From assembly GCA_009885825.1 (NCBI GenBank), contig VFJY01000046.1, positions 13,409-77,408 of the forward strand: 64,000 nucleotides of DNA. Reading direction: 5' to 3'. The first letter of the stretch is position 1. Every line of letters begins with the position of its first letter. Made by a program: the position numbers and the translations under genes. The DNA comes from Rhodobiaceae bacterium (GTDB taxonomy: Bacteria > Pseudomonadota > Alphaproteobacteria > Rhizobiales > Aestuariivirgaceae). Under the pieces are notes generated by a model. It did not search any database. It was given only the letters and a program-made list of their open reading frames with translations, and was not told where the DNA came from. Below, in pieces: positions 33,144 to 55,944 of the stretch.

Positions 33144-33446
33144 ATGGCTAACCTCATCATCACCTATTGGCGCGATATTCCTTCGCAAGTTGCGGTAAAA
33201 CTCGGCCGCAAGGAAGAAAAACGCATGCTGGACAACCGCTTCATGGAAGCCATCGACATGGCCGCCATGCGGGGCGGCGCCACCGATACGGATGCCTACC
33301 TCGCCGACTGGCGGCGCGCCGATCCGATCCCGGTGGGCGATGATCTCACAGCCGAAGTGGAAAAAGCCAAGGCCGAGCTCGAATCGACCTATGATCAGGA
33401 ACGGATCAAAACCCTCATTGCCAATGGAGGCAAGCTCTCGTCATGA
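33144..33446 (+). CDS. Small conserved protein ('Virulence factor' PF13769-like) found with corrinoid methyltransferase genes
   Basis: YWRDIPSQV...RFMEAIDMAAMR...DAYLADWRR signature; ATGA overlap with MeTr. Confidence 0.8.
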   Translation: MANLIITYWRDIPSQVAVKLGRKEEKRMLDNRFMEAIDMAAMRGGATDTDAYLADWRRADPIPVGDDLTAEVEKAKAELESTYDQERIKTLIANGGKLSS

Positions 33447-34399
33447 CCCACACTCTCGTCGCCTCGGCCACCCGCAGCCATATCATCGGCTTTGACCGCC
33501 CCTTCACGGTGATCGGCGAGCGCATCAACCCCACGGGCCGCAAGAAACTGGCCGCCGAAATGCAGGCCGGAAACTTTGAAACCGTGATCCGGGATGCGCT
33601 GGCGCAGATGGCCGCTGGCGCTCACATTCTCGATGTGAATGCCGGTGTGACCGCCGTCAACCCTAACGAAACCGAGCCGCCGCTGATGCGCCAGACCCTG
33701 GAAATCGTGCAGTCGCTGGTTGACCTGCCGCTCTGCATCGACTCGTCGGTGACCTCCGCCCTGAAAGCGGGCCTCGAAACCGCCAAAGGGCGGCCGCTGG
33801 TGAATTCGGTGACTGGTGAGGAAGAAAAGCTCGAAGCCATCCTGCCGCTCATTGCAAAATACAATGTGCCCGTCGTCGCCATCTCCAATGACGAGACGGG
33901 CATTTCCGAAGACCCGGACGTGCGCTTTGCGGTGGCGAAAAAGATTGTGGAGCGGGCCGCCGATTTCGGCATCAAGCCGGAAGACATTGTGGTCGATCCG
34001 CTGGTGATGCCCATCGGCGCCATGGGCACGGCGGGCCAGCAGGTGTTCCGCCTGGTGCGCCGCCTGCGTGAAGAGTTGAAAGTGAACACCACCTGCGGGG
34101 CATCGAATGTCTCCTTCGGCATGCCGAACCGCCGGGCGCTGACCGGATATTTCCTCGCCATGGCCGCTAGCCACGGCATGACATCAGCCATCATGAATCC
34201 GTTGCATGATGAAGACATGCACGCCATCTATGGTGCCAACGTGCTGAACGGCACCGACGCCCATTGTAAATTCTGGACCAACCGTTTCCGCGAAATGACC
34301 GCAGCGCCATCGAAAGCCGCGCAGGCAGCGGGCGAGATTTCATCCAATGAAGAGATTGAAGCACGGCGCGCGGCAAGAGAGGCAAGGCGGAGGAGATAG
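33443..34399 (+). CDS. Methyltetrahydrofolate:corrinoid methyltransferase (stand-alone pterin-binding MetH module)
   Basis: IGERINPTGRK, LDVNAG, CIDSS, NSV, DPL, GASNVSFG. Confidence 0.93.
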   Translation: MTHTLVASATRSHIIGFDRPFTVIGERINPTGRKKLAAEMQAGNFETVIRDALAQMAAGAHILDVNAGVTAVNPNETEPPLMRQTLEIVQSLVDLPLCIDSSVTSALKAGLETAKGRPLVNSVTGEEEKLEAILPLIAKYNVPVVAISNDETGISEDPDVRFAVAKKIVERAADFGIKPEDIVVDPLVMPIGAMGTAGQQVFRLVRRLREELKVNTTCGASNVSFGMPNRRALTGYFLAMAASHGMTSAIMNPLHDEDMHAIYGANVLNGTDAHCKFWTNRFREMTAAPSKAAQAAGEISSNEEIEARRAAREARRRR

Positions 34400-34402
34400 G
34401 AA

Positions 34403-34448
34403 GCGAATAGCAGTTTTCCCATTCGCAATTCGCCATTCGCCATTCGCT
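34403..34448. repeat. Heptamer (CATTCGC) tandem repeat with one inverted GCGAATAG unit
   Basis: GCGAATAG-N9-CATTCGC AATTCGC CATTCGC CATTCGC between MeTr and RACo. Confidence 0.7.
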
Positions 34449-34456
34449 AATAGATC

Positions 34457-36487
34457 ATGACCGATAAATCCGACGCCCTCATCGTCTTCACGCCCTCCGG
34501 CAAGCGGGGCCGGTTTCCGCTCGGCACGCCGGTGCTGCAAGCCGCACGCACCCTTGGCGTGGATATCGACAGCGTTTGCGGGGGCCGCGCCATTTGCGGG
34601 CGGTGCCAGATCAATGTGGGCGAAGGCGAGTTTGCCAAGCATGGCATAACGTCGGCGGTCGATCACTTAAGTGCGTTCTCAAAAGTCGAAGAGCGCTACG
34701 ACAAGCTGCGGGGCCTTGCCTCAGGCCGCCGTCTCTCCTGCCAGACACAACTGCTCGCCGATGTCGTGATCGACGTGCCACCCGAATCCCAGGTGCACAA
34801 ACAGGTGGTGCGCAAAGCCGCCGAAGTGCGCGATATTGAAATGGACCCCGCCACCCGTCTCTTCTACATCGAAGTGGAAGAGCCCGACATGCACAAGCCC
34901 TCGTCGGATTTGGAGCGCGTGTTCAAGGCGCTCGCCGAGCAATGGCAGGTCGATCACCTCACCTGCAATCTCGCCATCATCGCGCTGCTGCAAGCCACGC
35001 TCAAAAAGGGCCAGTGGAAAATCACCTGTGCCATTAACTCGCGCTCCACATCGGGTGCGACGGAACTCGTCGCCATCTGGCCCGGCTTCCATGACAAGGT
35101 TTTCGGCCTCGCGGTGGACGTGGGCTCCACCACGGTTGCCGCCCACCTCACCAATCTCGCGAGCGGCGAAGTCGCCGCATCGGCTGGCCTGATGAACCCG
35201 CAAATCCGCTTCGGCGAAGATTTGATGAGCCGGGTTTCCTACGTGATGATGAATCCCGGCGGCGAAAAAGAAATGACCGCCGTTATCCGCGAGGCATTGA
35301 ATACGCTGGCGCAGCAGGTGGCGACGCAAGCGCAGATTGACCTCAGCGACATTCTGGAAATCGTGCTCGTCGGCAATCCCGTCATGCACCACCTGTTCCT
35401 TGGCATTGATCCTACGGAGCTTGGCGGCGCACCCTTCGCGCTGGCCACGGGGCTTGCCATCACCTGCCCCGCCCGCGAGCTGGATTTGAAATTGAACCCC
35501 GGTGCGCAATGCTACGTGCTGCCCTGCATCGCGGGCCATGTGGGGGCGGATGCGGCAGGCGTGGTGCTTTCCGAAGCGCCGCAGGATTCGGACGAAATCA
35601 TTCTCGCGGTTGATGTGGGCACCAATGCCGAAATCATTCTGGGTTCCAAAGCCCGCCTGCTCGCCTGCTCGTCGCCCACCGGCCCCGCCTTTGAAGGCGC
35701 GCAGATTTCCTGCGGCCAGCGCGCCGCACCGGGCGCTATCGAGCGCATCCGCATCGACCCCGTAACTTTGGAGCCACGCTTCCGCGTCATCGGAAGTGAT
35801 CTGTGGTCGGACGATCCGGGCTTTGACGCGGCGGTGGCGGGAACCGGCGTCACCGGCATTTGCGGTTCCGGCATCATCGAAGTGATCGCGGAGATGTATC
35901 TGGCCGGCATCATCAATCAGGATGGCCAGGTGGACGGCGGCATGTCCGCCATTAGCCCCCGCGTCCGCGCCAACGGCCGCACGTTCACCTATGTGGTGCG
36001 CGACGGCGAACCGCTGATCTCCATCACCCAAAACGACGTCCGCGCCATCCAGCTGGCCAAGGCAGCTTTGTATGCGGGCGTGCGCCTGCTGATGGACAAG
36101 CTCGGCTTGGACCACGTTGATAAAATCAGACTGGCCGGCGCCTTCGGCACCCACATCGATGTTAAGTATGCGATGATCCTGGGGTTGATCCCCGACGCGC
36201 CGTTGGAACACGTCTCCTCAGCGGGCAACGCCGCAGGCACGGGCGCTAGGATTGCCCTGCTCAATAAAGCCGCGCGGGATGAAATCGAGGCGGTCGTTCG
36301 CCGAATAGAAAAGATTGAAACGGCGGTGGAGCCAAAATTCCAGCAGCATTTCGTGGAGGCGATGGCGATACCTCACAAGACAGCAGTGTTCGAGAATTTG
36401 ATGAAGGTTGTGACCCTGCCGCCCATCAAGGAAATCTCGACGCTGGATGATGGCGGCGGGGAGAGACGGAAGAGAAGAAGGGGGTAG
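34457..36487 (+). CDS. RACo/ASKHA reductive activator of corrinoid proteins with N-terminal 2Fe-2S domain
   Basis: CGGRAICGRC...RLSCQ ferredoxin motif, DVGSTT, DVGTNAE, GPAFEG, GICGSG, LAGAFG. Confidence 0.94.
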   Translation: MTDKSDALIVFTPSGKRGRFPLGTPVLQAARTLGVDIDSVCGGRAICGRCQINVGEGEFAKHGITSAVDHLSAFSKVEERYDKLRGLASGRRLSCQTQLLADVVIDVPPESQVHKQVVRKAAEVRDIEMDPATRLFYIEVEEPDMHKPSSDLERVFKALAEQWQVDHLTCNLAIIALLQATLKKGQWKITCAINSRSTSGATELVAIWPGFHDKVFGLAVDVGSTTVAAHLTNLASGEVAASAGLMNPQIRFGEDLMSRVSYVMMNPGGEKEMTAVIREALNTLAQQVATQAQIDLSDILEIVLVGNPVMHHLFLGIDPTELGGAPFALATGLAITCPARELDLKLNPGAQCYVLPCIAGHVGADAAGVVLSEAPQDSDEIILAVDVGTNAEIILGSKARLLACSSPTGPAFEGAQISCGQRAAPGAIERIRIDPVTLEPRFRVIGSDLWSDDPGFDAAVAGTGVTGICGSGIIEVIAEMYLAGIINQDGQVDGGMSAISPRVRANGRTFTYVVRDGEPLISITQNDVRAIQLAKAALYAGVRLLMDKLGLDHVDKIRLAGAFGTHIDVKYAMILGLIPDAPLEHVSSAGNAAGTGARIALLNKAARDEIEAVVRRIEKIETAVEPKFQQHFVEAMAIPHKTAVFENLMKVVTLPPIKEISTLDDGGGERRKRRRG

Positions 36488-39795: not shown

Positions 39796-41319
39796 TCAGA
39801 AATCTGTCGGCTCGCCGCCCTGCTCCACGCGCCTGGCGACAAAGGCATCAATGGATTCGAGTCGCGACGGTTCGAGATACGGCGTTTCATATTCGGCCAG
39901 CGCCTGCTTCCACAGCGCGTTGGCTTTCTGGTGCGCCTGTGGCGAGCCAGCGGCTTCCCATTGCGGAAAATTTCGCCAGTCAGAAATCAGCGGCGTGTAA
40001 AAAGCGGTGGAATATCTTTCCATGGTTTGCCGCGCGCCGAAGAAATGCCCGCCGGGGCCAACTTCCATTATGGCGTCAAAGCCCATCGTGTCTTTTGAAA
40101 CCTCAAGCGGCTTCAAAAATTCCGTCACCATCTGCAGCAGATCGATATCGAGCGCGAATTTTTCGTAAGACGCCACGAGCCCGCCTTCCATCCAGCCCGC
40201 GGCATGCTGAATGATGTTGCCGCCGCCCATGATGGCGCCCCACAGCGAGAATACGGATTCATAAGCGGCCTGCGCATCGACGCTGTTGGCGGCGTTGGTG
40301 TTGCTGGTGCGATAGGGAAGCTTGTAGCGCCTCGCCAATTGGCCACCAATGATGCAGGCCTTCATGTATTCCGGCGTTCCAAATGCCGGCGCTCCGGATT
40401 TCATGTCGACGTTCGACGTGAAGCCGCCGTAAACAAAAGGGGCGCCTGGATTGGCGAGCTGCGAGAGTGAAAGGCCCGCCAGCGCTTCGGCATTCTGCTC
40501 AACCACAGCGCCCGCCAGCGTTATCGGGGCCATGGCGCCAGCGAGTGTGAAGGGTGTGACCACGCAGATCTGGTTCATCCGGGCCATTTCAATGATGCCC
40601 ATGGCCATGGGGCCATCAAGCTTCAGCGGCGAATTGGTGTTGATCACCGTGTAGGTCGATGGTTCGGTCAGAAGTTGTTCCTGCGAAATGCCGCGCGCCA
40701 GACGGACAATCTCAATGGCGTCAAACAGCCGGTGACGGCCGGTGGACGAAGCGAACGGCACCTTGTCGGAATAGACCATCTTGTTGCGCGTGATGTGGAG
40801 ATGGCGGATTGAAGCATGCACATCGAGCGCATCCACGGAAGCGCCACCCGCCGTGTGAACCGTGTTGAAAAACTGCGACAGCTTCACAAAATTCCCGCAG
40901 TCCTCCAGCGTGCCGGGCCTGCGGCCCCTGTCAAGATCAGAGCAATTGGGCGGCCCGCCCACCGGCGCAAAGGCAATCCATTTGCCGCCAATGCGAATGT
41001 CACGCGCGGGGTTTCTGGCGTGAAAAGTGAATTCGGATGGCGGCGTTTTCAGCGCCTGCTCCACAATCTCGCGGCCAATGCGAACCCGGTCGCCCTTCAC
41101 GCTTGCTCCGGCCCGGCCCAGAATTTCCCGCGCTTCCGGATAGGTCATATCCATGCCAATTTCTTCCAGCACGCGCAGAGACTCGAGATGGATGGATTCG
41201 AGATGATCGCCTGACAAAACGCGCGAAGGTTCAAGGGTAAGTTGCGGCTGTCCCCATGGCAATTGGTTGATCGGCTGCTTGGCGCTTTCCATCCGGCGTC
41301 CACGCCGCTGGGTGTTCAT
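39796..41319 (-). CDS. MttB (trimethylamine methyltransferase) superfamily, non-pyrrolysine, paralog 1
   Basis: NTNSPLKLD, TPFTLAGAMAP, FTSNVDMKSGAPAFGTPEY, HAAGWMEGGL; no in-frame TAG. Confidence 0.93.
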   Translation of the reverse strand: MNTQRRGRRMESAKQPINQLPWGQPQLTLEPSRVLSGDHLESIHLESLRVLEEIGMDMTYPEAREILGRAGASVKGDRVRIGREIVEQALKTPPSEFTFHARNPARDIRIGGKWIAFAPVGGPPNCSDLDRGRRPGTLEDCGNFVKLSQFFNTVHTAGGASVDALDVHASIRHLHITRNKMVYSDKVPFASSTGRHRLFDAIEIVRLARGISQEQLLTEPSTYTVINTNSPLKLDGPMAMGIIEMARMNQICVVTPFTLAGAMAPITLAGAVVEQNAEALAGLSLSQLANPGAPFVYGGFTSNVDMKSGAPAFGTPEYMKACIIGGQLARRYKLPYRTSNTNAANSVDAQAAYESVFSLWGAIMGGGNIIQHAAGWMEGGLVASYEKFALDIDLLQMVTEFLKPLEVSKDTMGFDAIMEVGPGGHFFGARQTMERYSTAFYTPLISDWRNFPQWEAAGSPQAHQKANALWKQALAEYETPYLEPSRLESIDAFVARRVEQGGEPTDF

Positions 41320-41321
41320 GG

Positions 41322-42347
41322 CTAAACCGGAAACGGGTTGCGTTCCGCAAAACCCTCCTGATGCCAATAGGGGTAAGCCTTCGTGGTGGCGCTGGCGGCA
41401 TTGAGTTTCGCCATCTGTTCCTTCGTCAAGCTCCAGCCAACGCTGCCGAGATTTTGCTTGAGCTGTTCTTCATTGCGGGCGCCAATGATGACCGTCGACA
41501 CCGTGGGCCGATGAAGAAGCCAGTTGATGGCAATTTGCGGAACGGATTTGCCCGTCTCCTTGGCAATCTCATCGATCGCGTCCATGACACGGAACAGGTG
41601 CTCCTCGGCAACCGGCGGGCCATCATCAGCGGTCACATGCAGCCGGCTTGTCGCTGGCAGCCCCGTTCCGCGCCGGATTTTGCCCGTGAGCCTGCCCCAG
41701 CCCAGAGGACTCCAGACCACCGCACCCACACCTTGATCAAGGCCGAGCGGCATCAGCTCCCATTCATAGGAACGGCCCACCAGCGAGTAATAGGCCTGGT
41801 GCGCAACATGGCGGGTGAGGCCAAGTTTTTCCGATGTGGCCAGAGATTTCATCAAATGCCAGCCTGAGAAGTTGGAGCAGCCGGTGTAGCGGATTTTTCC
41901 GGCGCGGACGAAATCATCAAGGCAGCCCAGCACTTCTTCCTGCGGCGTCATGGCGTCAAAGCCATGCAGCTGGAACAGATCGATATAATCCGTGCCCAGA
42001 CGTTTCAGCGCGGCATCGACGGCTTGCGTCAGATGGGCGCGCGAGGAACCCACGTCATTGGGCCGGTCGCTGAAACGGAAGGTCGCTTTGGTGGAAATGA
42101 TCACCTTATTGCGGCGGCCCTTGATGGCCGCGCCCAAAGCCTCTTCGGCCAAGCCTTTGGAATAGACATCGGCGCTGTCAAACATGGAAATGCCGGCATC
42201 GAGGCACACGTCAATCAGCCGCGTCGCGCCCTTGGCATCGGTCGAGCCCCAGGCTTTGAAGAAGTCCGTGCCGCCACCAAAAGTCGCGGTGCCAAAACTC
42301 AAGGCAGGAACCATAAATCCTGATCCGCCGAGTTGACGATACTCCAT
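41322..42347 (-). CDS. Aldo/keto reductase
   Basis: FDSADVYS, STK, DYIDLFQLH, WSPLGWG, GARNEEQL. Confidence 0.93.
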   Translation of the reverse strand: MEYRQLGGSGFMVPALSFGTATFGGGTDFFKAWGSTDAKGATRLIDVCLDAGISMFDSADVYSKGLAEEALGAAIKGRRNKVIISTKATFRFSDRPNDVGSSRAHLTQAVDAALKRLGTDYIDLFQLHGFDAMTPQEEVLGCLDDFVRAGKIRYTGCSNFSGWHLMKSLATSEKLGLTRHVAHQAYYSLVGRSYEWELMPLGLDQGVGAVVWSPLGWGRLTGKIRRGTGLPATSRLHVTADDGPPVAEEHLFRVMDAIDEIAKETGKSVPQIAINWLLHRPTVSTVIIGARNEEQLKQNLGSVGWSLTKEQMAKLNAASATTKAYPYWHQEGFAERNPFPV

Positions 42348-42351
42348 TGTT

Positions 42352-43272
42352 TCACTCCTCTGACTTGGTGAAGGCTACCGCAATTTCGGCGGCAACGACG
42401 GCGTTATTTTTGACCAGCGCGATATTGGCCTTGAGGGAGCGCCCGCCGGTGGCCTCAGCCAGCTTGGCCAGCAGGAATGGCGTTACGCTCTTTCCCGAAA
42501 TGCCGAGGCTTTTGGCTTCGGCGACCGCCTTTTCAATCACGGGCGCAATTTCGGAGGCAATGATTTCGTTTGCCTCGGGGATGGGATTTGCGACCACAAT
42601 ACCGCCCTTCAACCCCATGCCCCATTTCGCGCGGGCGAGATTTGCAACTTCGCTCGCACTGTCGCAACGCATGGGAACCTCGAGGCCGGATTGCCGTGAA
42701 TAGAAGGCCGGGAAATCATCCGTGCCAAAACCCACCACCGGAACACCCAGCGTTTCCAGCGTTTCAAGTGTCAGCGCCAAATCCAGAATGGCCTTCGCCC
42801 CCGCGGTCACTACAATCACATCGCTTTCGGCGAATTCAGTCAGATCGGCGGAGATATCGAAGCTGCGATCAGCTCCCCGGTGCGCGCCGCCAATGCCGCC
42901 AGTTGCGAAAACCTGAATGCCCGCCATCGCCGCAATGCGCATGGTGGAGGCGACTGTGGTGGCGCCATCCAGCTTTCGCGCGACCACGTGTGGCAAGTCG
43001 CGAGTTGATACCTTGGCGATATCTGAGCCTGCGATCGCAAAATTCTTGAGTTCCTCCGCTGTCAGTCCGACGCGCAATGCGCCACCCACAATTGCGACAG
43101 TTGCCGGAACAGCGCCGACATTGCGAATGATAGCCTCCACTTCAACCGCCATTTCAAAATTGGCGGGATATGGCATGCCGTGGGCGATAATGGTTGACTC
43201 CAGCGCCACCACCGGCCTTCCGGCGGCGATTGCCGAAGAGACTTCTTCGGTGATCTTCAAATGCCTATTCAT
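42352..43272 (-). CDS. psuG: Pseudouridine-5'-phosphate glycosidase
   Basis: VVALESTIIAHGMPYP, KVSTRD, ATTVASTM, TGGIGG.HRG, DISADL, KAILD, TPFLL; ATG 43272. Confidence 0.95.
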   Translation of the reverse strand: MNRHLKITEEVSSAIAAGRPVVALESTIIAHGMPYPANFEMAVEVEAIIRNVGAVPATVAIVGGALRVGLTAEELKNFAIAGSDIAKVSTRDLPHVVARKLDGATTVASTMRIAAMAGIQVFATGGIGGAHRGADRSFDISADLTEFAESDVIVVTAGAKAILDLALTLETLETLGVPVVGFGTDDFPAFYSRQSGLEVPMRCDSASEVANLARAKWGMGLKGGIVVANPIPEANEIIASEIAPVIEKAVAEAKSLGISGKSVTPFLLAKLAEATGGRSLKANIALVKNNAVVAAEIAVAFTKSEE

Positions 43273-44149
43273 GCCGCGCTTCCACAATTGCCAGCAATCT
43301 TGACTCACTTAGCCCCACAGCCGTTGACGAAATCGAGGCGACAGCTAAGCTCGCCGCAGCCTGGCCAAACCGCGCGGCGTCAAATAATTCATAGCCTTTG
43401 AATAGCCCATAAACCAAACCGGCAACAGCGGCATCGCCTGCTCCGGTTACGTCCCTGACATGCGATGCGGCAAGGCTGGGAACCTGCTGTTTGATTCTCG
43501 CGGTTGAGGCGCGCGAGCCTTCCTTGCCCAAGTGGATCACCAGATTATGCAACCCGCGCCCGTGCAAATCGCTGCCCAATGCCGCGAGCTGATCGCGGTT
43601 GGGCGTGGCGAGATAGATTTCGTGTTTCTCAAGCACGGCCTTCAACTTCTGGGATTTAGTGACTGAGACAGGTTCAACAATCAGTTTCCCGCCACAATGC
43701 AGCGCCAGCCACTCCAACACCTCAATCGAAACATTGCAATCAACAACAATGTATTTCGCGGCCGCAAGATTGGCTTTATGCTTGTCCAAATGATCGGGCT
43801 TCAAGCGTTCCAGAATGCGCATGTCATTTACGGCGGAGATGAGCTCTCCAGCCTCATCGAGCACGGCGACATAGGCTCCTGTTGCCGCGTCGCTTCGCAA
43901 GGCCATGGAGAGGTCAACGCCTGCATCGCCAGTTGCCTTGAACGCAATTTCGCCCGGCGCATCATTGCCAATCACTGAAATAAGCGCCGTGTTCACACCC
44001 AGCATTGCAAGATTATGCGCAATGTTGCGGGCCACGCCACCCGGCGTGAACGTAACCTCGCACGGATTTGAAGTGGCAGGCAAAAACGGTCCAATAGCCT
44101 TGGCCTTGATATCAATGTTCATGCCGCCAATAACAACTATGTCAAACAC
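43265..44149 (-). CDS. psuK: PfkB-family carbohydrate kinase, probable pseudouridine kinase
   Basis: GGMNIDI, PGGVARNIAHNL, DVTGAGDA; overlaps psuG. Confidence 0.85.
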   Translation of the reverse strand: MFDIVVIGGMNIDIKAKAIGPFLPATSNPCEVTFTPGGVARNIAHNLAMLGVNTALISVIGNDAPGEIAFKATGDAGVDLSMALRSDAATGAYVAVLDEAGELISAVNDMRILERLKPDHLDKHKANLAAAKYIVVDCNVSIEVLEWLALHCGGKLIVEPVSVTKSQKLKAVLEKHEIYLATPNRDQLAALGSDLHGRGLHNLVIHLGKEGSRASTARIKQQVPSLAASHVRDVTGAGDAAVAGLVYGLFKGYELFDAARFGQAAASLAVASISSTAVGLSESRLLAIVEARHE

Positions 44150-44157
44150 GAGTGCCC

Positions 44158-45726
44158 TCAGAAATCCGTTGGCGCGCCGCCTTCACGTTTGCGCTTTTCC
44201 ACGAATGCATCAAGCTCTTCGCGGATTGCCGGGTCAAGGATTGGTTCAACATATTCAGCCAGGGCCTGCTTGTAGACCGCGTTTGTCCGCTGCGCCGCCT
44301 CGGGTTTTCCGGCGGCTTCCCACTGCTGGTTGTTGCGCCAGTCAGATATAATTGGCGAGTAGAACGCGGTGGAATAGCGGGCGAGCGTATGCTGAGCCCC
44401 GAAGAAATGTCCGCCGGGTCCAACTTCACGGATAGCATCAACACCCAGCGCGTCTTCGCTGGTATCAAGCGGTTGCAGAAATTCCGAAACCATCTGGATG
44501 AGATCGCAATCGAGCACGAATTTTTCGAAGCTGGCGACTAGGCCACCCTCCAGCCAGCCCGCGCCGTGCATGATAAAGTTACCCCCTCCCATGGTGAGAC
44601 CCCACATGGAGAAAACACTTTCATAGGCGGCCTGGGCATCAACGGTATTGGCAGCGCACGTGTTCGATGTGCGGTAAGGCAAATTGTAGCGCCGCGCCAT
44701 TTGCCCGCCAACGATGCAGGCCTTCATGTATTCCGGTGTGCCGAAGGCGGGGGCGCCCGACTTCATGTCGACGTTTGAAGTGAACCCGCCATAGATTACA
44801 GGCGCGCCTTTGCGGACAACTTGGGTGAATGCCAGGCCGGCGAGAGCTTCGGCGTTTTGCTCGACGATGGCTCCGGCGACAGTCACCGGCGCCATGGCGC
44901 CAGCCAGCGTGAACGGCGTGATGCAAACGATCTGGTTGCGGGACGACATTTCGATGATGCCGCGCAGCATCGGCAGATCCAGTTTCAGCGGAGAATTTGT
45001 GTTCACAATCGTGAACAGAGAAGGCTCGCGCTCCAATTGCTCCAGCGAAATGCCACGCCCAATCCTCGCGATCTCAATGCCGTCGAGAATTCTTTCGCTG
45101 CCGAGCGAGTAAGCGTGGAATGGCTTGTCTGTAAGCACGACCATATCGCGCAACGCTTCAAGATGCCGGACAGAAGCATGAATATCAACCGGCTCAACCG
45201 GATACCCGGCGATGAAGCCAATGCAATTGAAATATTGCGCGAGCTTCAGGAACTTGCGGTAATCGGCCTGGTTCCCCGTGCGGCGGCCGCCTTCGAGATC
45301 GGAACAATTGGGCGGGCTTCCAACTGTGCCAAACAGCATGTTGGGGCCGCCGATGACCGCATTGTTCTCGGCGTTGCGGGCATGGAACGTGAATTTCGGC
45401 GGAGCCGATTTCATCAGCTTCTCGATCATTGCCGGATCGAAGCGCACCCGCTCGCCGGAAATATTCGCGCCCGCCTTCCTGAGCATGTCACGGGCTTCCG
45501 GAAGCGCGAAATCCATGCCGATTTCAGAAAGCACTCTCAACGAGGCATGGTGGATGGCTTCAACCTCATCGGCGGAGATGATTTCCATTGGCGGAAAGGC
45601 GCGTGCTGTGTTGCGGCGCGGCAACTGTGGAATTGCGCCCTTGACGCCAGCGCCTGCACCCCGGCGATTTGCCGCCTCCCGCCGCCCCCGGCGGGAATTT
45701 TCCGGACTGAGAGCTTCTTCGCTCAT
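44158..45726 (-). CDS. MttB superfamily methyltransferase, non-pyrrolysine, paralog 2
   Basis: Same motifs as paralog 1 (NTNSPLKLD, HGAGWLEGGL); Arg-rich N-terminus. Confidence 0.93.
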   Translation of the reverse strand: MSEEALSPENSRRGRREAANRRGAGAGVKGAIPQLPRRNTARAFPPMEIISADEVEAIHHASLRVLSEIGMDFALPEARDMLRKAGANISGERVRFDPAMIEKLMKSAPPKFTFHARNAENNAVIGGPNMLFGTVGSPPNCSDLEGGRRTGNQADYRKFLKLAQYFNCIGFIAGYPVEPVDIHASVRHLEALRDMVVLTDKPFHAYSLGSERILDGIEIARIGRGISLEQLEREPSLFTIVNTNSPLKLDLPMLRGIIEMSSRNQIVCITPFTLAGAMAPVTVAGAIVEQNAEALAGLAFTQVVRKGAPVIYGGFTSNVDMKSGAPAFGTPEYMKACIVGGQMARRYNLPYRTSNTCAANTVDAQAAYESVFSMWGLTMGGGNFIMHGAGWLEGGLVASFEKFVLDCDLIQMVSEFLQPLDTSEDALGVDAIREVGPGGHFFGAQHTLARYSTAFYSPIISDWRNNQQWEAAGKPEAAQRTNAVYKQALAEYVEPILDPAIREELDAFVEKRKREGGAPTDF

Positions 45727-46655
45727 TTTGCTTTTCCTTTTTCACGATAGGCCTCAAGAGCAGGGTCGCTGGCCACCTGCTTCACCAGCCAATCCTCGAA
45801 GCGCTTGATTTTGGGTTTCATGCGGTCTTCGCCATTGCAGGCAAATTGCCACTGGTGGCGATGGGGCACAAAATCCGGGAATGGCTGAACCAGGCGACCC
45901 GACTTCAGCTCCTCCGTGGCAAAGGGACCAACGGTCATGGCAACCCCCCTGCCCTCAATGGCTGCTTCCTGCGCCAGAATATGACTGTCAAACGCCAGGC
46001 GATCCGAAAGCTTTACGCCCTTGACACCATGGGCCTCAAACCAGATTTGCCAGTCTTCTTCCGCCGTATAAACGTAAAGCAGCTTGTGCTTTGTCAAATC
46101 CTGAGGCGTCTTGATGGCGTTTGGGCCCCTGATCAATTCAGGTGAGCACACGGGTGCGAGAAGCGAACGAAACAAAGGGCGGTAATAGTGTTGGGGCGAC
46201 CTGTTGCGCGCAAGTATGAAGCCTGCATCCACGTTTTTCTCGTCAAAATCCCAATCGAAGTAGGACGTGGACATGCGGATTTTCATGTCGGGGTAGCGCC
46301 GCTCGAAATCATGCAATCGCGGAATAAGCCATTTCAGAGCTACGGTGACATAGACCTGAATGATGAGTTCATTGTCATTTGCCGTTGGGCGAAGGGCGCG
46401 GGTTTGTGATTCAATCTGGTCAAAGGCATCGCGAATGGCGGGGTAATAGACATGACCAATCTGGGTGAGTTCGGCGCGTCTCGCATCCCTGCGAAAAAAT
46501 TGAACACCCAGCCGCTGTTCCAATGCCTTGACCTGATGGCTTACAGCCGAGCGCGTGATTCCAAGCTCAGTTGAAGCAAGGCGGAAACTGCCAAGGCGCG
46601 CCGCGGCCTCAAAAGCCGTCAAAGCGCGGAGCGGGGGCAATTCACGTTTAGGCAA
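45723..46655 (-). CDS. LysR-family regulator, GcvA-like
   Basis: LPPLRALTAFEAAARLGSF...SAVSHQVKALE; WLIPRL; TTG start. Confidence 0.92.
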   Translation of the reverse strand: MPKRELPPLRALTAFEAAARLGSFRLASTELGITRSAVSHQVKALEQRLGVQFFRRDARRAELTQIGHVYYPAIRDAFDQIESQTRALRPTANDNELIIQVYVTVALKWLIPRLHDFERRYPDMKIRMSTSYFDWDFDEKNVDAGFILARNRSPQHYYRPLFRSLLAPVCSPELIRGPNAIKTPQDLTKHKLLYVYTAEEDWQIWFEAHGVKGVKLSDRLAFDSHILAQEAAIEGRGVAMTVGPFATEELKSGRLVQPFPDFVPHRHQWQFACNGEDRMKPKIKRFEDWLVKQVASDPALEAYREKGKAK

Positions 46656-46731
46656 AATTCTTCACCACTGGGATGTTTCCAACCCTCATAGCATCCCACA
46701 AATGAGGACGTTAAGCGAAATTCCATATTTT

Positions 46732-46752
46732 ATGGTGAATCAAATTCACCAT
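46732..46752. promoter_or_regulatory. Inverted repeat ATGGTGAAT-CAA-ATTCACCAT, LysR-type operator
   Basis: Perfect 9-3-9 dyad containing T-N11-A, between the divergent LysR and mttB3 genes. Confidence 0.7.
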
Positions 46753-46823: not shown

Positions 46824-48404
46824 ATGAGCGTAGTCGAAGACCTTTCCAAGCGGCGCGGCGGGCGCGACGCCAGGCGCGCTTTGCGGGCCCGCGCTATCCC
46901 CATGAGTGAGGCGGCGGTTCGCCCCGGCATGGAAGGAGGACAATACAAGCCCCTTTCCCAGCATGACTTGGAGCGCATTCACCAGGCAGCCCTGACGCTT
47001 TTAGAAACAGTCGGCTTTGCCCAGGCCATTCCAAGTTGCGTCGAAGCCATGACAGCGCGCGGCTGCACCATGACCGACAAGGGCCGCATGCTCATCCCAA
47101 GATCGCTCACCGAAGACATCCTGGCATCCTGCGCCCGAAACTTCCTGCTGCACGGGCGCGATCCGCAGCATGATATGCTGCCCAGCGGAAACAAGGTCTA
47201 TTTCGGCACGGCGGGAGCCGCCGTGCACGTGGTTGAACCTGAAACACGCACCTACCGCGAGTCGTTGCTGGTTGATCTCTATGACGCGGGCCGGATTGTT
47301 GACACGTGCGAACATATTCATTTCTTCCAGCGCTGTCTCACGGCGCGCGACATGATCACGGGCCACGATCTGGACATCAACACACTCTACGCCTGTTTGG
47401 CGTCAACCCAAAAACACGTGGGAACGTCGATGGTGGACCCGACCCATGTGGATGAATGCCTGCAGATGCTGCATTTCGTGGCAGGCAGTGAAGAGAAATG
47501 GCGCGAGCGCCCGTTTGTTTCGCAATCCAATTGCTTTGTTGTGCCACCGATGAAATTCGCCGAGGACGCCTGCCGTTGCCTGGAAGTCGCAGCGCGTGGC
47601 GGCATGCCGGTACTGTTGCTATCGGCCGCCCAGGCTGGGGCCACATCGCCCGCCGCCCTTGCCGGAACCTTGGTTCAGGCAGTCTCCGAATGCCTGTTTG
47701 GATTGGTCTACATTAATTGCATCGTGCCAGGTGCTGTTGCCATCTGGGGGCCGTGGCCGTTTGTTTCCGATCTCCGCACGGGGGCCATGTCCGGCGGTTC
47801 CGGCGAGCAGGCGCTCATCACCTCGGGCTGCGCGCAGATGGGGCATTTCTATAATCTCACGGTTGGATCAGCCGCAGGCATGTGCGATTCCAAAATGCCG
47901 GACATGCAGGCTGGGTATGAAAAAGGGGTGACAGCTGGCATCTCGGCCATGACGGGTGTCAACCTGCTCTATGAAAGCGCTGGCATGCACGCCTCGCTTC
48001 TCGGTTTCTGCCTCGAAAGCTTGCTGATCGACAACGACATGCTGGGGTCCATCAATCGCAACGTGCGCGGCATTGAAGTGAACGAGGACACTTTGTCGGT
48101 TGAGGTTATCCGCGAGGTCTGCCTCAATGGCCCTGGCCACTTCCTTGGCAGCAACCAAACGCTGAACCTGATGCAAAAGGAATATGTTTATCCGGCGATC
48201 GCCAATCGCATGAGCCCCAAGGAATGGAACGAGGCTGGCAAGCCCGATCTGGTGGAACGGGCGGCCGCTCGCAAGCATGAAATCCTGTCAACCTATTATC
48301 CGGACTATCTGCCGCGCCAAATGGATGACGTGATTCGGGCGAAGCACGACATCAAGCTGCCGCGTGAGGTTATGGAGATCGGCGACCCGCGCTGGATGAA
48401 GTAA
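46824..48404 (+). CDS. MttB superfamily methyltransferase, non-pyrrolysine, divergent paralog 3
   Basis: YFGTAG, GPWPFVSDLRTG, DSKMPDMQAGYEK, GPGHFLG. Confidence 0.93.
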   Translation: MSVVEDLSKRRGGRDARRALRARAIPMSEAAVRPGMEGGQYKPLSQHDLERIHQAALTLLETVGFAQAIPSCVEAMTARGCTMTDKGRMLIPRSLTEDILASCARNFLLHGRDPQHDMLPSGNKVYFGTAGAAVHVVEPETRTYRESLLVDLYDAGRIVDTCEHIHFFQRCLTARDMITGHDLDINTLYACLASTQKHVGTSMVDPTHVDECLQMLHFVAGSEEKWRERPFVSQSNCFVVPPMKFAEDACRCLEVAARGGMPVLLLSAAQAGATSPAALAGTLVQAVSECLFGLVYINCIVPGAVAIWGPWPFVSDLRTGAMSGGSGEQALITSGCAQMGHFYNLTVGSAAGMCDSKMPDMQAGYEKGVTAGISAMTGVNLLYESAGMHASLLGFCLESLLIDNDMLGSINRNVRGIEVNEDTLSVEVIREVCLNGPGHFLGSNQTLNLMQKEYVYPAIANRMSPKEWNEAGKPDLVERAAARKHEILSTYYPDYLPRQMDDVIRAKHDIKLPREVMEIGDPRWMK

Positions 48405-49060
48405 TGGAGCATCCCGTTCTCGCCAGCATCAGGCGCTCCGGCTTTATGCCTATGGGATGGTTTGAACCTTCCACTGATGACCGTGTTCCGCATGATGCGA
48501 AGTTCGTGGTCCTTGTTGGCAATGCTGGACCCGATATGTTCCGCCGCTTTGCGCGGGAGCGAAATCCGTTGACCGATGCGATTGATGACTGGACACGGGA
48601 TATTTTAGAAAGCCTCGCTGTGGATCTTTCGGCGCAGGTCGTGTTTCCGTTTGACAGGCCGGCGCTGCCGTTCTTGAGCTGGGCGCGGCGGGCGGGTGCA
48701 GGACATGTCTCGCCCCTCGGGCTCAACATCCATTCCACTTATGGTCTATGGCATGCCTATCGCGCCGCGTTGCTGTTTCCTGTGGCATTCGACATTCCGC
48801 CCCAATCTGCAGGCGCGCATCCCTGTGAAACATGCCCAGACAAGCCCTGCCTGACCGCCTGCCCGGTCGGTGCATTCGACGGAACGTCCTATGCGGTTGA
48901 TACGTGTGCATCCCACGTGGAATCGCCCGCAGGGGCGGATTGCCTTGTCAATGGATGCCTGGCCAGGCGCGCCTGCCCTGTCGGCCAAGGCTTCACCTAT
49001 CATCCCTATCAGGCGCAATTCTTCATGCGCGCGTTCATTGAGTCCCGCCGCGGTGTATAG
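48404..49060 (+). CDS. 4Fe-4S ferredoxin-like protein (QueG/CblC-like N-terminal part)
   Basis: SPLGLNIH..YGLWHAYR, CETCPDKPCLTACP, C..GCLARRACP. Confidence 0.8.
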   Translation: MEHPVLASIRRSGFMPMGWFEPSTDDRVPHDAKFVVLVGNAGPDMFRRFARERNPLTDAIDDWTRDILESLAVDLSAQVVFPFDRPALPFLSWARRAGAGHVSPLGLNIHSTYGLWHAYRAALLFPVAFDIPPQSAGAHPCETCPDKPCLTACPVGAFDGTSYAVDTCASHVESPAGADCLVNGCLARRACPVGQGFTYHPYQAQFFMRAFIESRRGV

Positions 49061-49964
49061 GAATGTTCAGCGCAAACTGGATGCGGGCCAGAACATTATT
49101 CTTGATGGCGGCACGGGAACAGATATCCAAAGACGCGGCGCACCGATGAGCGGCGAGACCTGGTGCGCCGATGTCAACCTGACCCATCCCGAAATCGTTC
49201 AAATGGTGCATGAAGATTATATCCGCGTGGGAGCCGATGTGATCTGCGCCAACACTTTTGCAACCAGCGCCCTCTCCTTCAATGTCTATGGTCGAGATAA
49301 AGAACTTTTGAAAATAGATGCCACGGCGGTTGCCATTGCGAAGAAGGCGGCGGCCGGGACACAGGTTGCCGTCGCGGGCTCAATCTCCACCATGCGACCC
49401 GTAGCTGCTGGCTCCGACCGCACCCTGAAAGATGTCGAATGGACAGAGCCTGAAGCGCGCGAACTGTTCCGTCGCAAGGCGGAGAATCTGGCTGTCACCG
49501 GCATTGACCTCATCATGATGGAGATGATGAGGGACGAGGACTATTCGCTGTTCGCCACCGAGACGGCAATGGCAACCGGACTTCCAGTCTGGGTGGGAAT
49601 TTCCGTAGAAAGGCGCGAAGACGGCAAGCTTTCGGGCTTTGGGCGGAATGACCAGTTGCTGGACGATATTGCGCGGGCATTGTCGGCTACGGGGCCGGCG
49701 GCCATGAGCATCATGCACACCTCTCCCAATGATACGGACGAGGCTTTGCAGATTTTGCGTAAATATTGGGATGGCCCACTGGCCGCCTATCCCGAATGCG
49801 GTTATTTCAAAAGCCCCAACTGGCAATTTGTTGATGTGATTGCGCCTGATGATCTTGTGGCCAAGGCGCAAGACTGGCAGAAACTGGGCGTTTCCATATT
49901 TGGCGGCTGCTGTGGCCTGGGACCCGGCCACATTGCGGCGCTGGCAAAGGAGTTCAAACAATGA
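49053..49964 (+). CDS. Homocysteine S-methyltransferase family protein
   Basis: LDGGTGT, GADVICANTF, C-terminal GGCCG zinc ligands; GTG start inferred. Confidence 0.9.
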   Translation: MYRNVQRKLDAGQNIILDGGTGTDIQRRGAPMSGETWCADVNLTHPEIVQMVHEDYIRVGADVICANTFATSALSFNVYGRDKELLKIDATAVAIAKKAAAGTQVAVAGSISTMRPVAAGSDRTLKDVEWTEPEARELFRRKAENLAVTGIDLIMMEMMRDEDYSLFATETAMATGLPVWVGISVERREDGKLSGFGRNDQLLDDIARALSATGPAAMSIMHTSPNDTDEALQILRKYWDGPLAAYPECGYFKSPNWQFVDVIAPDDLVAKAQDWQKLGVSIFGGCCGLGPGHIAALAKEFKQ

Positions 49965-50344
49965 AGACTGGATCATGCCTGTGTGGGGCGGTGAGGTATA
50001 AGGCACAAAACTTGCGCGATGTTGTCGCCTGCCACTGCGGGCAGTGCCGCAAGCAGACTGGCACCTATATGTCAGCCACCGGTGTCTTGGACACTGATTT
50101 GAACATTATCGAATCACGTGGGCTCAAATGGTTTCGCTCAAGCCGCACCGCCCAACGGGGATTCTGCCAGGAATGCGGCTCAGTCTTGTTCTGGAAGGGC
50201 GATGGCAAGGACTACACTGCCATTTCAGCTGGCTCGCTGGATGGCAAAACGGACCTCAAACTTGAAGGCCATATCTATTGCGATGATGCGGGCGACTATT
50301 ACGAGATTGCCGGTGGTGGGTACAAGTTGGCCCAGTGGAACTAA
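49961..50344 (+). CDS. GFA/CENP-V family zinc protein
   Basis: GSCLCG...CHCGQCRK...RGFCQECGS. Confidence 0.93.
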   Translation: MKTGSCLCGAVRYKAQNLRDVVACHCGQCRKQTGTYMSATGVLDTDLNIIESRGLKWFRSSRTAQRGFCQECGSVLFWKGDGKDYTAISAGSLDGKTDLKLEGHIYCDDAGDYYEIAGGGYKLAQWN

Positions 50345-50347
50345 GTG

Positions 50348-50490
50348 AGGAGGAGACAGTTGCAGGCAGGCAACCATCTCCTTGAAATCACTCCAAACGA
50401 ACAATACGTTTCCGGCGCTGGGCGACTAAAGCAGGAAACTCTCAGGTTTGCCGGGAAGCCAATACTTTAGCGCGCCCGAGAGTGATCCCT
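50348..50490 (-). ncRNA. Candidate structured RNA element, copy 1 (most diverged)
   Basis: Terminal hairpin 50352-50381; closing stem ATCACTC (50387-50393) / GAGTGAT (50480-50486); inner TTTCC..GGAAA stem; homologous to copies 2 and 3. Confidence 0.5.
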
Positions 50491-50499
50491 TTTCAATAG

Positions 50500-50805
50500 T
50501 TATTTAGGACAGCCTGCTTTGCCCACATCATCAGGACCGTCACAGCCGCTGTCGTCCGTTTCGCCTTCATCATTGTCGTTATCATCATCGTCGTCATCAT
50601 GGTCATCATGATCATTGTCATGGCCACCGTGACCCGAGTTATCGCTTGGACCGGAATTGTCGCTATCCGAACCGCTGCCTGAGCTATCCGATCCCTTCGC
50701 ATAGGCTTGCGATGGGCCAAATGGGTCAAAATTTGTGAAAATTGGACCTGCGGTGAGAATGCCAAGCCCGAGGAGTAAACCAAGAATTGAAGTTGAGTTG
50801 CGCAT
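50500..50805 (-). CDS. Small secreted Ser/Gly/His/Asp-rich protein
   Basis: Signal-like N-terminus ending AYA, then GHGGHDNDHDDHDDDDDD and a C-terminal Cys pair. Confidence 0.7.
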   Translation of the reverse strand: MRNSTSILGLLLGLGILTAGPIFTNFDPFGPSQAYAKGSDSSGSGSDSDNSGPSDNSGHGGHDNDHDDHDDDDDDNDNDEGETDDSGCDGPDDVGKAGCPK

Positions 50806-50939
50806 GTTTTTAGACCTCTCATTGTTTCCTTTGAAACCAGACCCCCTGGTTCATTTGCCAGAGATACCAATGTTCAGATGAGGAGGCCCTGAAACCGGTT
50901 TTCAGCGAACTGTCATCTTGAGCAGCCAACCAAATCAAA

Positions 50940-51083
50940 TAGAAAGGAGACGGTTGCGGGCAAGCAACCATCTCCATGAAATCACTCAGTTTACCAAGAT
51001 TTCCCCGCGCTGGGCAGCGTTATTGGAAACTTTTTAAGCTTGGCAGACAGGTCAAGGGCAATCGACCTGACATGGAGTGACTG
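50940..51083 (-). ncRNA. Candidate structured RNA element, copy 2
   Basis: Hairpins at 50946-50975 and 51048-51069 both carry a UUGCCC loop on the minus strand; closing stem ATCACTC/GAGTGA. Confidence 0.55.
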
Positions 51084-51210
51084 GTTCTGAACCGGCAGCA
51101 GGCCAGATGTCCGAATCTGAATACAGGAACTTATCGTCCCCACGAGCCTCTAAAATGGGGACGAATTGTTGTTTCAAAACCACATTGAAGTGACCGAATT
51201 TCAGGTCCGC

Positions 51211-51489
51211 TTACTGAACCTCAGTGACAGTTAACTTTCCATTTACGCGTTCAGCGGTGAACTTGATTTTTGTGCCCGGCTTGAACTTGGGCAGCATGGT
51301 CGCATCCTTGACTGCAAACACCATGGTCATGGCGCCCATGTCGAGATTCTTGAGCGGTTCATGCTTTATGGTGACCTTCAGCTGTTTTTCGTCAACTTTC
51401 TTGACAAGACCGCTCGTCATCTCAGTGCCACTAGCCGATGTCGAAAGCATTGCAGCAAGCAGGGCTGATACAGTGAGTAGCTTCTTCAT
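51211..51489 (-). CDS. CusF-like periplasmic copper-binding protein
   Basis: Signal peptide; KVTIKHEPLKNLDMGAMTMVF (H/M/M site). Confidence 0.92.
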   Translation of the reverse strand: MKKLLTVSALLAAMLSTSASGTEMTSGLVKKVDEKQLKVTIKHEPLKNLDMGAMTMVFAVKDATMLPKFKPGTKIKFTAERVNGKLTVTEVQ

Positions 51490-51544
51490 GATTGTATCCT
51501 TCACAATAGACAGTTGTTGATGGTTGTTGCTTTGAATCTGATTA

Positions 51545-52039
51545 TCAATTCTTGGTGACTTTCAGCGGCCCGTGCATTCCGGATTCGTAGTGGCCGGGAA
51601 TGAGGCACGCGAAGGTGTAATCTCCAGACTTCGAGAAGGTCCAGATGATCTGGCCCGTTTCACCAGGAGCAAGCCGCAATGAGTTGTCATCTGCATGTTC
51701 CATGTCGGGGTTCTTTTCCATCTCGACCTTGTGAGCTAGAACATTGGCTTCGGTGTCCATGACAAACTCGTGATCCGCCTCTCCTTTGTTAGTGAAGTTC
51801 AGGACCACAGTTTCACCTTCCCGGAATTGCAGTTTCTTGGGCTCAAAAATCATCTTTCCGTCATTGGTTTCGCGCATTGTGATGTTAATGGTGCGCTTGG
51901 CCTTAGCCTTTGCGCCCGCCATGCCCAGGGAATACTCATCATGATCCTCCTCATGAGTGCCGGTGGCAAACGCGCCATTTCCCAGTGCCAAAGCTGCAGT
52001 CATGGACGCAATAATCAGTAACCTCATAGTTTTCCTCAT
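51545..52039 (-). CDS. Cupredoxin (plastocyanin/azurin-like) periplasmic protein
   Basis: HEF...FACLIPGHYESGM type-1 copper ligands; signal peptide. Confidence 0.92.
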   Translation of the reverse strand: MRKTMRLLIIASMTAALALGNGAFATGTHEEDHDEYSLGMAGAKAKAKRTINITMRETNDGKMIFEPKKLQFREGETVVLNFTNKGEADHEFVMDTEANVLAHKVEMEKNPDMEHADDNSLRLAPGETGQIIWTFSKSGDYTFACLIPGHYESGMHGPLKVTKN

Positions 52040-52082
52040 TGGTTGATGAATAATTCAAAGTGTCTTGAGATGGGTTTCAGTT

Positions 52083-53426: not shown

Positions 53427-53454
53427 GTTTGTTTCTCCAAAAATATCATGTGCT

Positions 53455-54903: not shown

Positions 54904-55144
54904 TTTTCTCTCCCTCTGGCTTTTCGCACTTCTCCTTTTCCGCACCGTCTTCCGGGACCCATGCTTCCGGTACAACAGGCTCGCGATGGGTGTAGCCTGT
55001 TAACGTCGCGTGATGGTGTGTCCTCGGCACTTTTGCGCCCGCTTTGACAGGTGATTTGTGTGGCAAGACCTCGGGGAGAGGGCTTGGCGATGCGCACCCA
55101 GCAAGCAGCAAAGGCACAACGACGACAAACAGCGTTGCTTTCAT
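54884..55144 (-). CDS. Small lipoprotein
   Basis: LLLAGC lipobox, HHH, two C-terminal Cys. Confidence 0.7.
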   Translation of the reverse strand: MKATLFVVVVPLLLAGCASPSPLPEVLPHKSPVKAGAKVPRTHHHATLTGYTHREPVVPEAWVPEDGAEKEKCEKPEGEKNECSPQ

Positions 55145-55221
55145 GATAGTTCCGACAATGAAAAAAATGACGATGGGTGAGCTAGGGCGAGCCTAACTCA
55201 AGGCGGATTCCGAGTATGGAA

Positions 55222-55587: not shown

Positions 55588-55649
55588 GGGAGTTGCATAT
55601 AGAAAAATCCTGTGGGGTCAAGTTACACTTTGGTCACGACCACGTTACC

Positions 55650-55880: not shown

Positions 55881-55944
55881 AGCTATGATGCGGCCAATGA
55901 TGGGCACCTGAAACGCATTGTCAGCACGCCGTCATCGAAGCCTG

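Follow-up and report, generated by a model that had tools for sequence, protein, structure and literature searches.

In a window of 64,000 nucleotides from a Rhodobiaceae bacterium placed in the Aestuariivirgaceae (GenBank assembly GCA_009885825.1, contig VFJY01000046.1), six genes on the minus strand at positions 39796 to 46655 form a tight putative operon. Within it, genes for a probable pseudouridine kinase (psuK), a pseudouridine-5'-phosphate glycosidase (psuG), and an aldo-keto reductase (AKR) lie between two paralogous genes of the MttB superfamily of corrinoid methyltransferases, and a lysR-type regulatory gene comes first. In the Aestuariivirgaceae, a family living in freshwater and soil, psuG followed mttB directly in 59 of 68 loci that were informative and distinct, and among the loci surveyed this linkage was limited to that family. 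The reading that we favor, and consider moderately probable, is that one LysR-controlled transcript carries two modules that are biochemically independent, namely, a pair of orphan quaternary-amine methyltransferases and ordinary pseudouridine salvage.

Gene order and junctions of the operon

The initial annotation had described the six minus-strand genes in the order lysR, mttB_B, psuK, psuG, AKR, and mttB_A, with junctions of -4, +8, -8, +4, and +2 bp. The genes, their families, and the junctions were all reproduced when open reading frames were listed and translated, families were assigned with Pfam and NCBIfam profiles and with sequence matches in the PDB, and the five junctions were taken straight from the DNA letters (Table 1). 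The products of mttB_A, mttB_B, and a third paralogue, mttB_C, are here named MttA, MttB, and MttC. The lysR and mttB_B genes share an ATGA overlap; the TGA of mttB_B is followed by 8 nucleotides (nt) and then by the GTG of psuK; psuK and psuG overlap in ATGAATAG; the TGA of psuG is followed by AACA and the ATG of AKR, with GAGGAG ahead of that ATG; and between the TAG of AKR and the ATG of mttB_A there is only CC. From junctions that overlap or span 2 to 8 nt, together with one conserved regulator site, we infer one shared transcript. A consensus scan of the operon for internal promoter and terminator signals gave counts at or below the shuffled expectation, which is neutral on internal promoters. 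In two sediment metatranscriptomes, about 7% of the sampled words were found, on short, low-depth contigs from relatives, and no junction was spanned.

Conservation of the psuG-mttB linkage within the Aestuariivirgaceae

Family loci were collected by genome scans with PsuG and MttB_B and then by tblastn, the best 80 loci being kept for each query. The gene order was mttB-psuK-psuG-mttA in 23 loci, mttB-psuK-psuG in 13, and mttB-psuG-mttA, with no psuK, in 9; variants with AKR accounted for 14. Five loci had mttB-mttA without psuKG, three had mttB alone, and one (L130) had only mttB-psuK. Two strains in culture also carry the cluster: Aestuariivirga litoralis KCTC 52945 (L132) and Taklimakanibacter lacteus SYSU D60012 (L140). 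The linkage of psuKG with mttB, first noticed in the window, was therefore not unique to that genome, and for this reason it deserves serious attention. Moreover, since the core recurs in most of the distinct loci at saturated synonymous divergence (dS), the arrangement is more than chance. All of the genes were under purifying selection, with ratios of nonsynonymous to synonymous divergence (dN/dS) of 0.05 to 0.16 against the relative L082.

The two kinds of genes were nonetheless separable, because psuG and mttA each occurred without the other. Both were present in 37 loci, psuG only in 22, mttA only in 5, and neither in 3, for an odds ratio of about 1, uncorrected for phylogeny. Thus, psuG and mttA have been gained and lost independently. 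Some loci depart further from the common order. In L139 to L141 and L143, which represent Taklimakanibacter and its relatives, psuK is missing and a gene for an HxlR-family regulator stands between mttB and psuG (for example, L140:12106-12708). The HxlR family includes formaldehyde-responsive regulators, and the divergent operon contains a GFA-family gene; together, the two genes hint that the locus has some connection with formaldehyde. In L007 and L085, psuK was recovered as several tblastn fragments, as was mttA in L115 and L093; the fragments may stem from frameshifts, pseudogenes, or errors of assembly and could reflect occasional decay of operon members.

The AKR gene behaves differently from its neighbors. 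It was restricted to the subclade of the window, and its position varied; in other loci it followed mttA or was absent. Its dS against L082 was 0.08, compared to 0.27 to 0.40 for the neighboring genes, i.e., 4 to 5 times lower. This low divergence, together with the variable position or absence of AKR in relatives, suggests recent recombination or transfer of AKR alone.

Relatives outside the family

The MttA homologue search gave same-family sequences only (77 to 98% identity), and relatives from outside the family were obtained with a 50%-representative search and two genome scans. The nearest outside relatives of MttA and MttB share 42 to 63% identity with them. Neither psuG nor psuK was found within 8 kb of any of 102 outside MttA/B loci (from Steroidobacteraceae, Rhodobacterales, Rhodospirillales, SAR324, and Actinobacteria). 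Likewise, no MttB gene was found within 10 kb of any of about 60 PsuG loci from other phyla, where psuK and psuG form a plain pair. Among 53 outside loci, a dimethylglycine-dehydrogenase-like gene with the domains DAO-FAO_M-GCV_T was adjacent in 21 and a corrinoid protein gene in 6; further neighbors encoded TetR regulators, hydantoinase/oxoprolinase, MR_MLE epimerase-like proteins, and transporters of the major facilitator superfamily. As judged by these gene families, the neighborhoods of the outside relatives are those expected for betaine catabolism.

PsuK and PsuG resemble standard pseudouridine salvage enzymes

PsuG aligned with Escherichia coli PsuG (4GIJ) without gaps at 57% identity and 347 bits; its other PDB matches included 8K05 (286 bits) and the C-glycosynthase AlnA (4EX8; 195 bits). 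The AGAK motif of the catalytic Lys166 is kept, its position having been set by comparison of the wild-type chain of 4GIJ with the variant chain of 4GIM, and the motifs ALEST, KVS.RDLP, GGIGG.HRG, and FDISADL are identical to those of E. coli. Residues E31, K93, H137, and D149 are those that we take to belong to the active site of PsuG. When 62 distinct mttB-linked PsuG sequences were compared with 64 canonical sequences from other phyla, no clade-specific active-site change was found. A new PsuG specificity was considered and rejected, as only S36A, T156S, and S167A discriminated between the two sets; these changes are conservative, and each was also present in some canonical sequences.

The psuK product has a PfkB domain, and its top NCBIfam model was the pseudouridine kinase NF007355, at 166.6 bits, below the equivalog cutoff of 540. 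Because NF007355 was the top model and psuG adjoins the gene, psuK probably encodes PsuK despite the score below the cutoff. Its best PDB match was E. coli PsuK (7VKP), and N14, D16, S30, G41, V42, N45, and the Asp of the GAGD motif are all kept. In E. coli PsuK, the roles of the pseudouridine-contact residues have been described, including that of S30, which reads N1-H (PMC9247573). PsuK diverges rapidly within the family, with 42 to 50% identity between subclades, and the divergent A. litoralis PsuK has kept the same pseudouridine-contact residues. Since PsuG aligns without gaps and carries the Lys166 motif and since the contact residues of PsuK are kept, the two look like standard pseudouridine salvage enzymes.

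The arrangement resembles psuK-psuG (yeiC-yeiN) of E. coli in that the same two enzymes are encoded by adjacent, co-oriented genes and retain their catalytic and contact residues. It differs in that the pair is part of an MttB operon whose LysR regulator is of the GcvA type, in that psuK is dispensable in 9 Aestuariivirgaceae loci, and in that there is no dedicated nucleoside transporter; in E. coli, psuT presumably adjoins psuK-psuG. A profile check of the whole window found no genes for a nucleoside transporter or for pyrimidine catabolism, and apart from psuK and psuG no gene in it has to do with nucleosides or pyrimidines.

MttA and MttB keep the carboxylate-binding residues of MtgB and lack its aromatic cage

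MttA and MttB are paralogues with 60% identity. MttA, MttB, and MttC scored 645, 658, and 349 bits against PF06253 (cutoff, 25), with near-complete coverage of the 500-position profile. All three open reading frames are uninterrupted, with no in-frame UAG, and scored 292 to 363 bits against TIGR02369, the model for pyrrolysine (Pyl)-containing MttB, which has an equivalog cutoff of 525. Because they have no in-frame stop, MttA and MttB were assigned to the non-Pyl group. Their best PDB matches were 4YYC (400 bits), followed by the glycine betaine:corrinoid methyltransferase MtgB of Desulfitobacterium hafniense (2QNE/9YCE; 334 bits, full-length). MttA and MttB have in common with 4YYC, a putative trimethylamine methyltransferase and their best solved relative, a GWLEGG loop; in contrast, 4YYC retains an MtgB-like Tyr (YGPPFVRD) where MttA and MttB carry G-x-PPNCSD. 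We take 4YYC to originate from Sinorhizobium meliloti.

In D. hafniense MtgB, glycine betaine is bound through its carboxylate by R312 and H348 and by an aromatic cage of Y97 and F356 (PMC13080624). MtgB belongs, like MttA and MttB, to the TIM-barrel MttB superfamily, and the equivalents of R312 and H348 are kept in both proteins (motifs LPYRTSN and HxAGW) and throughout the aerobic clade. In place of the MtgB cage residues Y97 and F356, however, both proteins have Gly. Since both cage positions are Gly, MttA and MttB are, by these residues, not of the MtgB type. The change of Y97 and F356 to Gly was also considered as a pocket change linked to psuG and was rejected, as the same residues occur in the whole aerobic clade, including homologues encoded beside dimethylglycine-dehydrogenase-like genes. 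MttC, judged from a three-way alignment with MttA and MttB, appears to be without equivalents of both R312 and H348.

The LysR regulator and the divergent intergenic region

The regulator has the Pfam domains HTH_1 and LysR_substrate and scored 288.5 bits against NCBIfam NF008352, a borderline value for a cutoff of 288. With these domains, this score, and a divergent promoter carrying a T-N11-A palindrome, it has the features of the GcvA subfamily of LysR regulators. The intergenic region between lysR and the divergent mttC contains a perfect palindrome, GGTGAATCAAATTCACC, that is probably the LysR operator, and an extra TCACC half-site lies beside the lysR start at 46662-46666. The GGTGA-N7-TCACC core and the half-site were kept in at least 90% of 69 distinct intergenic regions from the family. 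This conservation in the divergent intergenic region agrees with control of both arms by a single LysR regulator.

A corrinoid methyl-transfer kit surrounds the operon

The initial annotation had placed the two methyltransferases in a corrinoid framework, with the methyl group passing from a substrate:corrinoid methyltransferase (MT1) to methionine or tetrahydrofolate (THF). This framework proved sound, as the window holds the genes for it and a counterpart has been published. In 2025, an aerobic MtgBCDE/split methionine synthase (split-MetH) system was described in Ruegeria pomeroyi and Phaeobacter inhibens, with separate MtgB, MtgC, MtgD, and MtgE proteins together with RamA/RACo and DUF1638 (PMC12478193). 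All six of its components (PF06253, B12-binding, pterin-binding, PF02574, RamA/RACo, and DUF1638) were found in the window, which thus appears from its domain content to encode a full kit matching that system. The DUF1638 protein belongs to a family that has been associated with corrinoid reactivation (PMC12478193), and the MtgC-like corrinoid protein would presumably accept the methyl group from all three MttB paralogues. The parts list and the setting, an aerobic alphaproteobacterium, are the same as in R. pomeroyi and P. inhibens. The differences are that the parts here lie within about 28 kb, that three MT1 paralogues surround lysR, with psuK-psuG (with or without AKR) between two of them, and that these MT1s share only about 45% identity with the homologues that we found in Rhodobacterales.

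The divergent operon begins with mttB_C, whose start lies 168 bp from that of lysR and whose product is 26% identical to MttA and MttB; its synteny is kept in the family. The Cys-rich protein encoded next matched NapG weakly and, also weakly, the epoxyqueuosine reductase QueG in its Fe-S region (5D6S; E = 0.015). Its gene is strictly conserved across the family between mttC and the homocysteine methyltransferase gene, and the product is possibly a new accessory protein in corrinoid reduction or reactivation. The homocysteine methyltransferase gene that follows has a likely GTG start, deduced from the DNA, and overlaps the upstream stop codon by 8 nt.

The operon is flanked by the remaining parts of this methyl-harvest island of about 28 kb, at 33443-36487 and 56168-61608. 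A stretch at about 50400-56100 with a GC content of 0.51 to 0.53, compared to about 0.57 in its flanks, separates the GFA gene from the DUF1638 and corrinoid protein genes and contains genes for a cupredoxin, a multicopper oxidase, and an outer-membrane efflux protein. Only about 1 kb lies between the GFA and DUF1638/corrinoid genes in two near-identical relatives, L081 (a contig from a metagenome-assembled genome that is 99% identical to the window) and L082. For this reason, the stretch looks like a copper-resistance insertion of about 5 kb specific to the window genome. At 22829-27991, a gene of the enolase superfamily (MR_MLE) adjoins an ATP-binding cassette transporter (two permeases, a TOBE ATPase, and a solute-binding protein). 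Some of the outside MttA/B homologues (for example, in L186) likewise have MR_MLE genes beside them. Hydroxyproline-betaine epimerases are members of the MR_MLE superfamily, and the cluster may offer a lead to a betaine substrate.

Table 1. Positions in the window of the six-gene operon, its divergent promoter, and the associated genes
Feature	Position	Strand	Description
lysR	45723-46655	-	LysR-type regulator, GcvA subfamily; first gene of operon
mttB_B	44158-45726	-	Non-Pyl MttB-superfamily substrate:corrinoid methyltransferase (MT1); PF06253, 657.7 bits
psuK	43265-44149	-	Pseudouridine kinase-like PfkB kinase; GTG start
psuG	42352-43272	-	Pseudouridine-5'-phosphate glycosidase; PF04227, 419.5 bits
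AKR	41322-42347	-	Aldo-keto reductase; PF00248; weak NCBIfam subfamily matches
mttB_A	39796-41319	-	Second non-Pyl MttB-superfamily MT1; PF06253, 645.4 bits
Palindrome	46734-46750	.	Putative LysR box, GGTGAATCAAATTCACC; perfect, T-N11-A; lysR/mttC intergenic region
mttB_C	46824-48404	+	Third MttB-superfamily MT1; PF06253, 349 bits; TIGR02369, 363 bits
Cys-rich protein	48404-49060	+	218 amino acids (aa); Fe-S-like motif; no Pfam match
MtgE-like MT2	49053-49964	+	Second-step methyltransferase (MT2); homocysteine S-methyltransferase domain; PF02574, 161 bits
GFA-family protein	49961-50344	+	Glutathione-dependent formaldehyde-activating-like; PF04828; last in divergent operon; synteny conserved
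MtgD-like MT2	33443-34399	+	Pterin-binding methyltransferase (methyl-corrinoid:THF); PF00809
RACo-type activator	34457-36487	+	Fer2, RACo_linker, Raco_middle, and RACo_C_ter
DUF1638 protein	56168-56857	-	PF07796
MtgC-like corrinoid protein	56863-57564	-	B12-binding_2 and B12-binding; DxHxxG...SxL...GG motif
Second MtgE-like protein	60592-61608	-	Homocysteine S-methyltransferase domain; PF02574, 215 bits
Cupredoxin	51545-52039		Within lower-GC stretch
Multicopper oxidase	52083-53630		Within lower-GC stretch
Outer-membrane efflux protein	53455-54975		Within lower-GC stretch

Two independent modules and the alternatives to them

In the model that we favor, psuKG would have been fixed, in the ancestor of the Aestuariivirgaceae, within an operon of orphan quaternary-amine methyltransferases, and the two sets of genes would be co-expressed and would not share a substrate. 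MttA, MttB, and the divergent MttC would be the substrate-specific MT1s of an aerobic system of the MtgBCDE/split-MetH type, transferring a methyl group from a quaternary amine, betaine-like and carboxylate-bearing, to the Co(I) form of the MtgC-like corrinoid protein. The methyl group would then pass to THF via the pterin-binding MtgD-like protein or to homocysteine via the two PF02574 proteins, and Co(II) would be re-reduced by the RACo-type activator, the DUF1638 protein, and the Fe-S protein. In the second module, PsuK would phosphorylate pseudouridine and PsuG would cleave pseudouridine 5'-phosphate to uracil and ribose 5-phosphate; AKR would be a recent, mobile accessory. We infer all of these steps from homology and context. 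Independence of the two modules is favored because PsuK and PsuG are canonical, because MttA and MttB have kept the carboxylate-binding residues, and because their relatives occur in betaine contexts. It is favored also because psuG and mttA have been gained and lost independently, because there is no nucleoside transporter, and because every characterized substrate of the MttB family is a quaternary amine or trimethylamine.

Several observations weigh against this model. The substrate loop of MttA and MttB, G-x-PPNCSD, is family specific and unlike that of every characterized MttB-family enzyme, and a non-betaine substrate would be compatible with this divergence. Neither a betaine transporter nor a dimethylamine dehydrogenase is encoded alongside MttA and MttB here, unlike the situation in the outside relatives. 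Where psuG and mttA adjoin, an overlap of 4 bp is found in nearly every case, and this conserved overlap suggests translational coupling of the two. Furthermore, psuG is still wedged between mttB and mttA in loci where psuK has been lost or a regulator has been inserted, and the psuG-mttB linkage outlasts synonymous saturation (family-level dS of >1.5), with all of the genes under purifying selection. Such persistence is more than is usually expected of unrelated passengers.

These points bear on the proposal that MttA and/or MttB demethylate N-methylated nucleosides or nucleobases, whether m1- or m3-pseudouridine, methyluracil, or the cationic m7G, m1A, or m3C, which we regard as unlikely. 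If it were so, the operon could be a modified-nucleoside salvage unit in which the methyl group goes to methionine or THF and the base and ribose phosphate are recovered. The initial annotation had proposed one form of this, B12-dependent demethylation of N-methylpseudouridine or methyluracil. Written out as a serial pathway, MttB and/or MttA would take the methyl group off N1 or N3 of methylpseudouridine, of its 5'-phosphate, or of the 1- or 3-methyluracil that PsuG releases; the methyl group would pass to the corrinoid protein and on to methionine or THF, with PsuK and PsuG finishing the nucleoside. The adjacency spoke for this proposal, in the form of the tight operon and the psuG/mttA overlap kept across the family; two paralogous MT1s could suit two methyl positions, and the unusual substrate loop would be in keeping with an unusual substrate. 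E. coli PsuK retains on m1-pseudouridine only 6.8% of its activity on pseudouridine, and its Ser30 reads N1-H (PMC9247573), so that demethylation first would make sense. The remaining evidence went the other way. PsuG and PsuK are canonical, the latter with its N1-H-reading Ser; the Arg/His pair that binds a carboxylate is retained in MttA and MttB; and the nearest homologues are found in betaine-type neighborhoods, never beside psuKG. N-Methyl imides carry no charge, and their leaving group differs from that of the quaternary amines and trimethylamine used by characterized members of the family. Moreover, mttA persists without psuG and psuG without mttA, and the linkage is limited to one family even though m3-pseudouridine is, as far as is known, a universal feature of bacterial 23S rRNA. 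Methylpseudouridine nucleosides would supply only a tiny flux, and a nucleoside transporter is absent from the operon. With these points against it, we hold the serial pathway to be very improbable. The statement in the initial annotation that no link between MttB enzymes and pseudouridine had been described agreed with our search of the published literature, which yielded none; a published catabolic route for methylpseudouridines was likewise not found there, a gap that the serial pathway would fill.

A variant with cationic N-methyl bases (m7G, m1A, or m3C) would be chemically easier than one with methylpseudouridine or methyluracil. Here, MttA and MttB would demethylate cationic N-methyl bases or nucleosides from RNA turnover (7-methylguanine or 7-methylguanosine, 1-methyladenine, or 3-methylcytosine), and PsuK and PsuG would in parallel handle pseudouridine, which is likewise an abundant non-canonical nucleoside. 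It draws on the same operon evidence as the serial pathway, and an RNA-turnover theme needs no change in PsuK or PsuG, in agreement with their canonical sequences. A cationic N-CH3 group with a neutral leaving group, chemically akin to a quaternary amine, would also fit the attack of Co(I) on N+-CH3 that can be derived for the family from the mechanism of MtgB (PMC13080624). We nevertheless found this variant distinctly improbable: it has no published precedent, the Arg/His pair and the betaine-type neighborhoods of the relatives point in another direction, genes for purine or pyrimidine salvage or for a nucleoside transporter are absent nearby, and the modules have been gained and lost independently. 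A change of substrate on the other side of the operon is hardly credible. In such a scheme, PsuK and PsuG would process another ribosyl or C-glycosyl compound, such as a ribosylated betaine, that arises from the substrate of MttA/B, much as AlnA-type homologues act on non-uracil aglycones. The PsuG fold family does include C-glycosynthases such as AlnA, which is among the PDB matches of PsuG, and PsuK evolves rapidly and scores below its equivalog cutoff. PsuG, however, matched E. coli PsuG far better than AlnA, without gaps and with no clade-specific active-site change, and in both subclades PsuK was closest to E. coli PsuK, with all contact residues kept.

Significance

The components of the operon are known families in a known kind of system, and it is the arrangement itself that is undescribed. 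Most aerobic MttB-superfamily paralogues are without a known substrate; up to seven orphan PF06253 paralogues occur per genome, and their substrates are an explicitly open question (PMC12478193). The locus described here gives a clean handle on that question, as it is conserved across a family, tightly coupled, and present in cultured strains, and as the pseudouridine enzymes are the only non-methyltransferase passengers in its core. If these passengers mark the substrate class, the locus would encode the first demethylases that depend on a corrinoid and act on N-methylated nucleosides or nucleobases; B12 biochemistry would gain a new branch, and methylated RNA nucleosides would have their first route of catabolism. 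If instead the passengers are unrelated to the substrate, the Aestuariivirgaceae would provide a documented case of long-lived operon hitchhiking and a warning against assigning function from adjacency within a single lineage.

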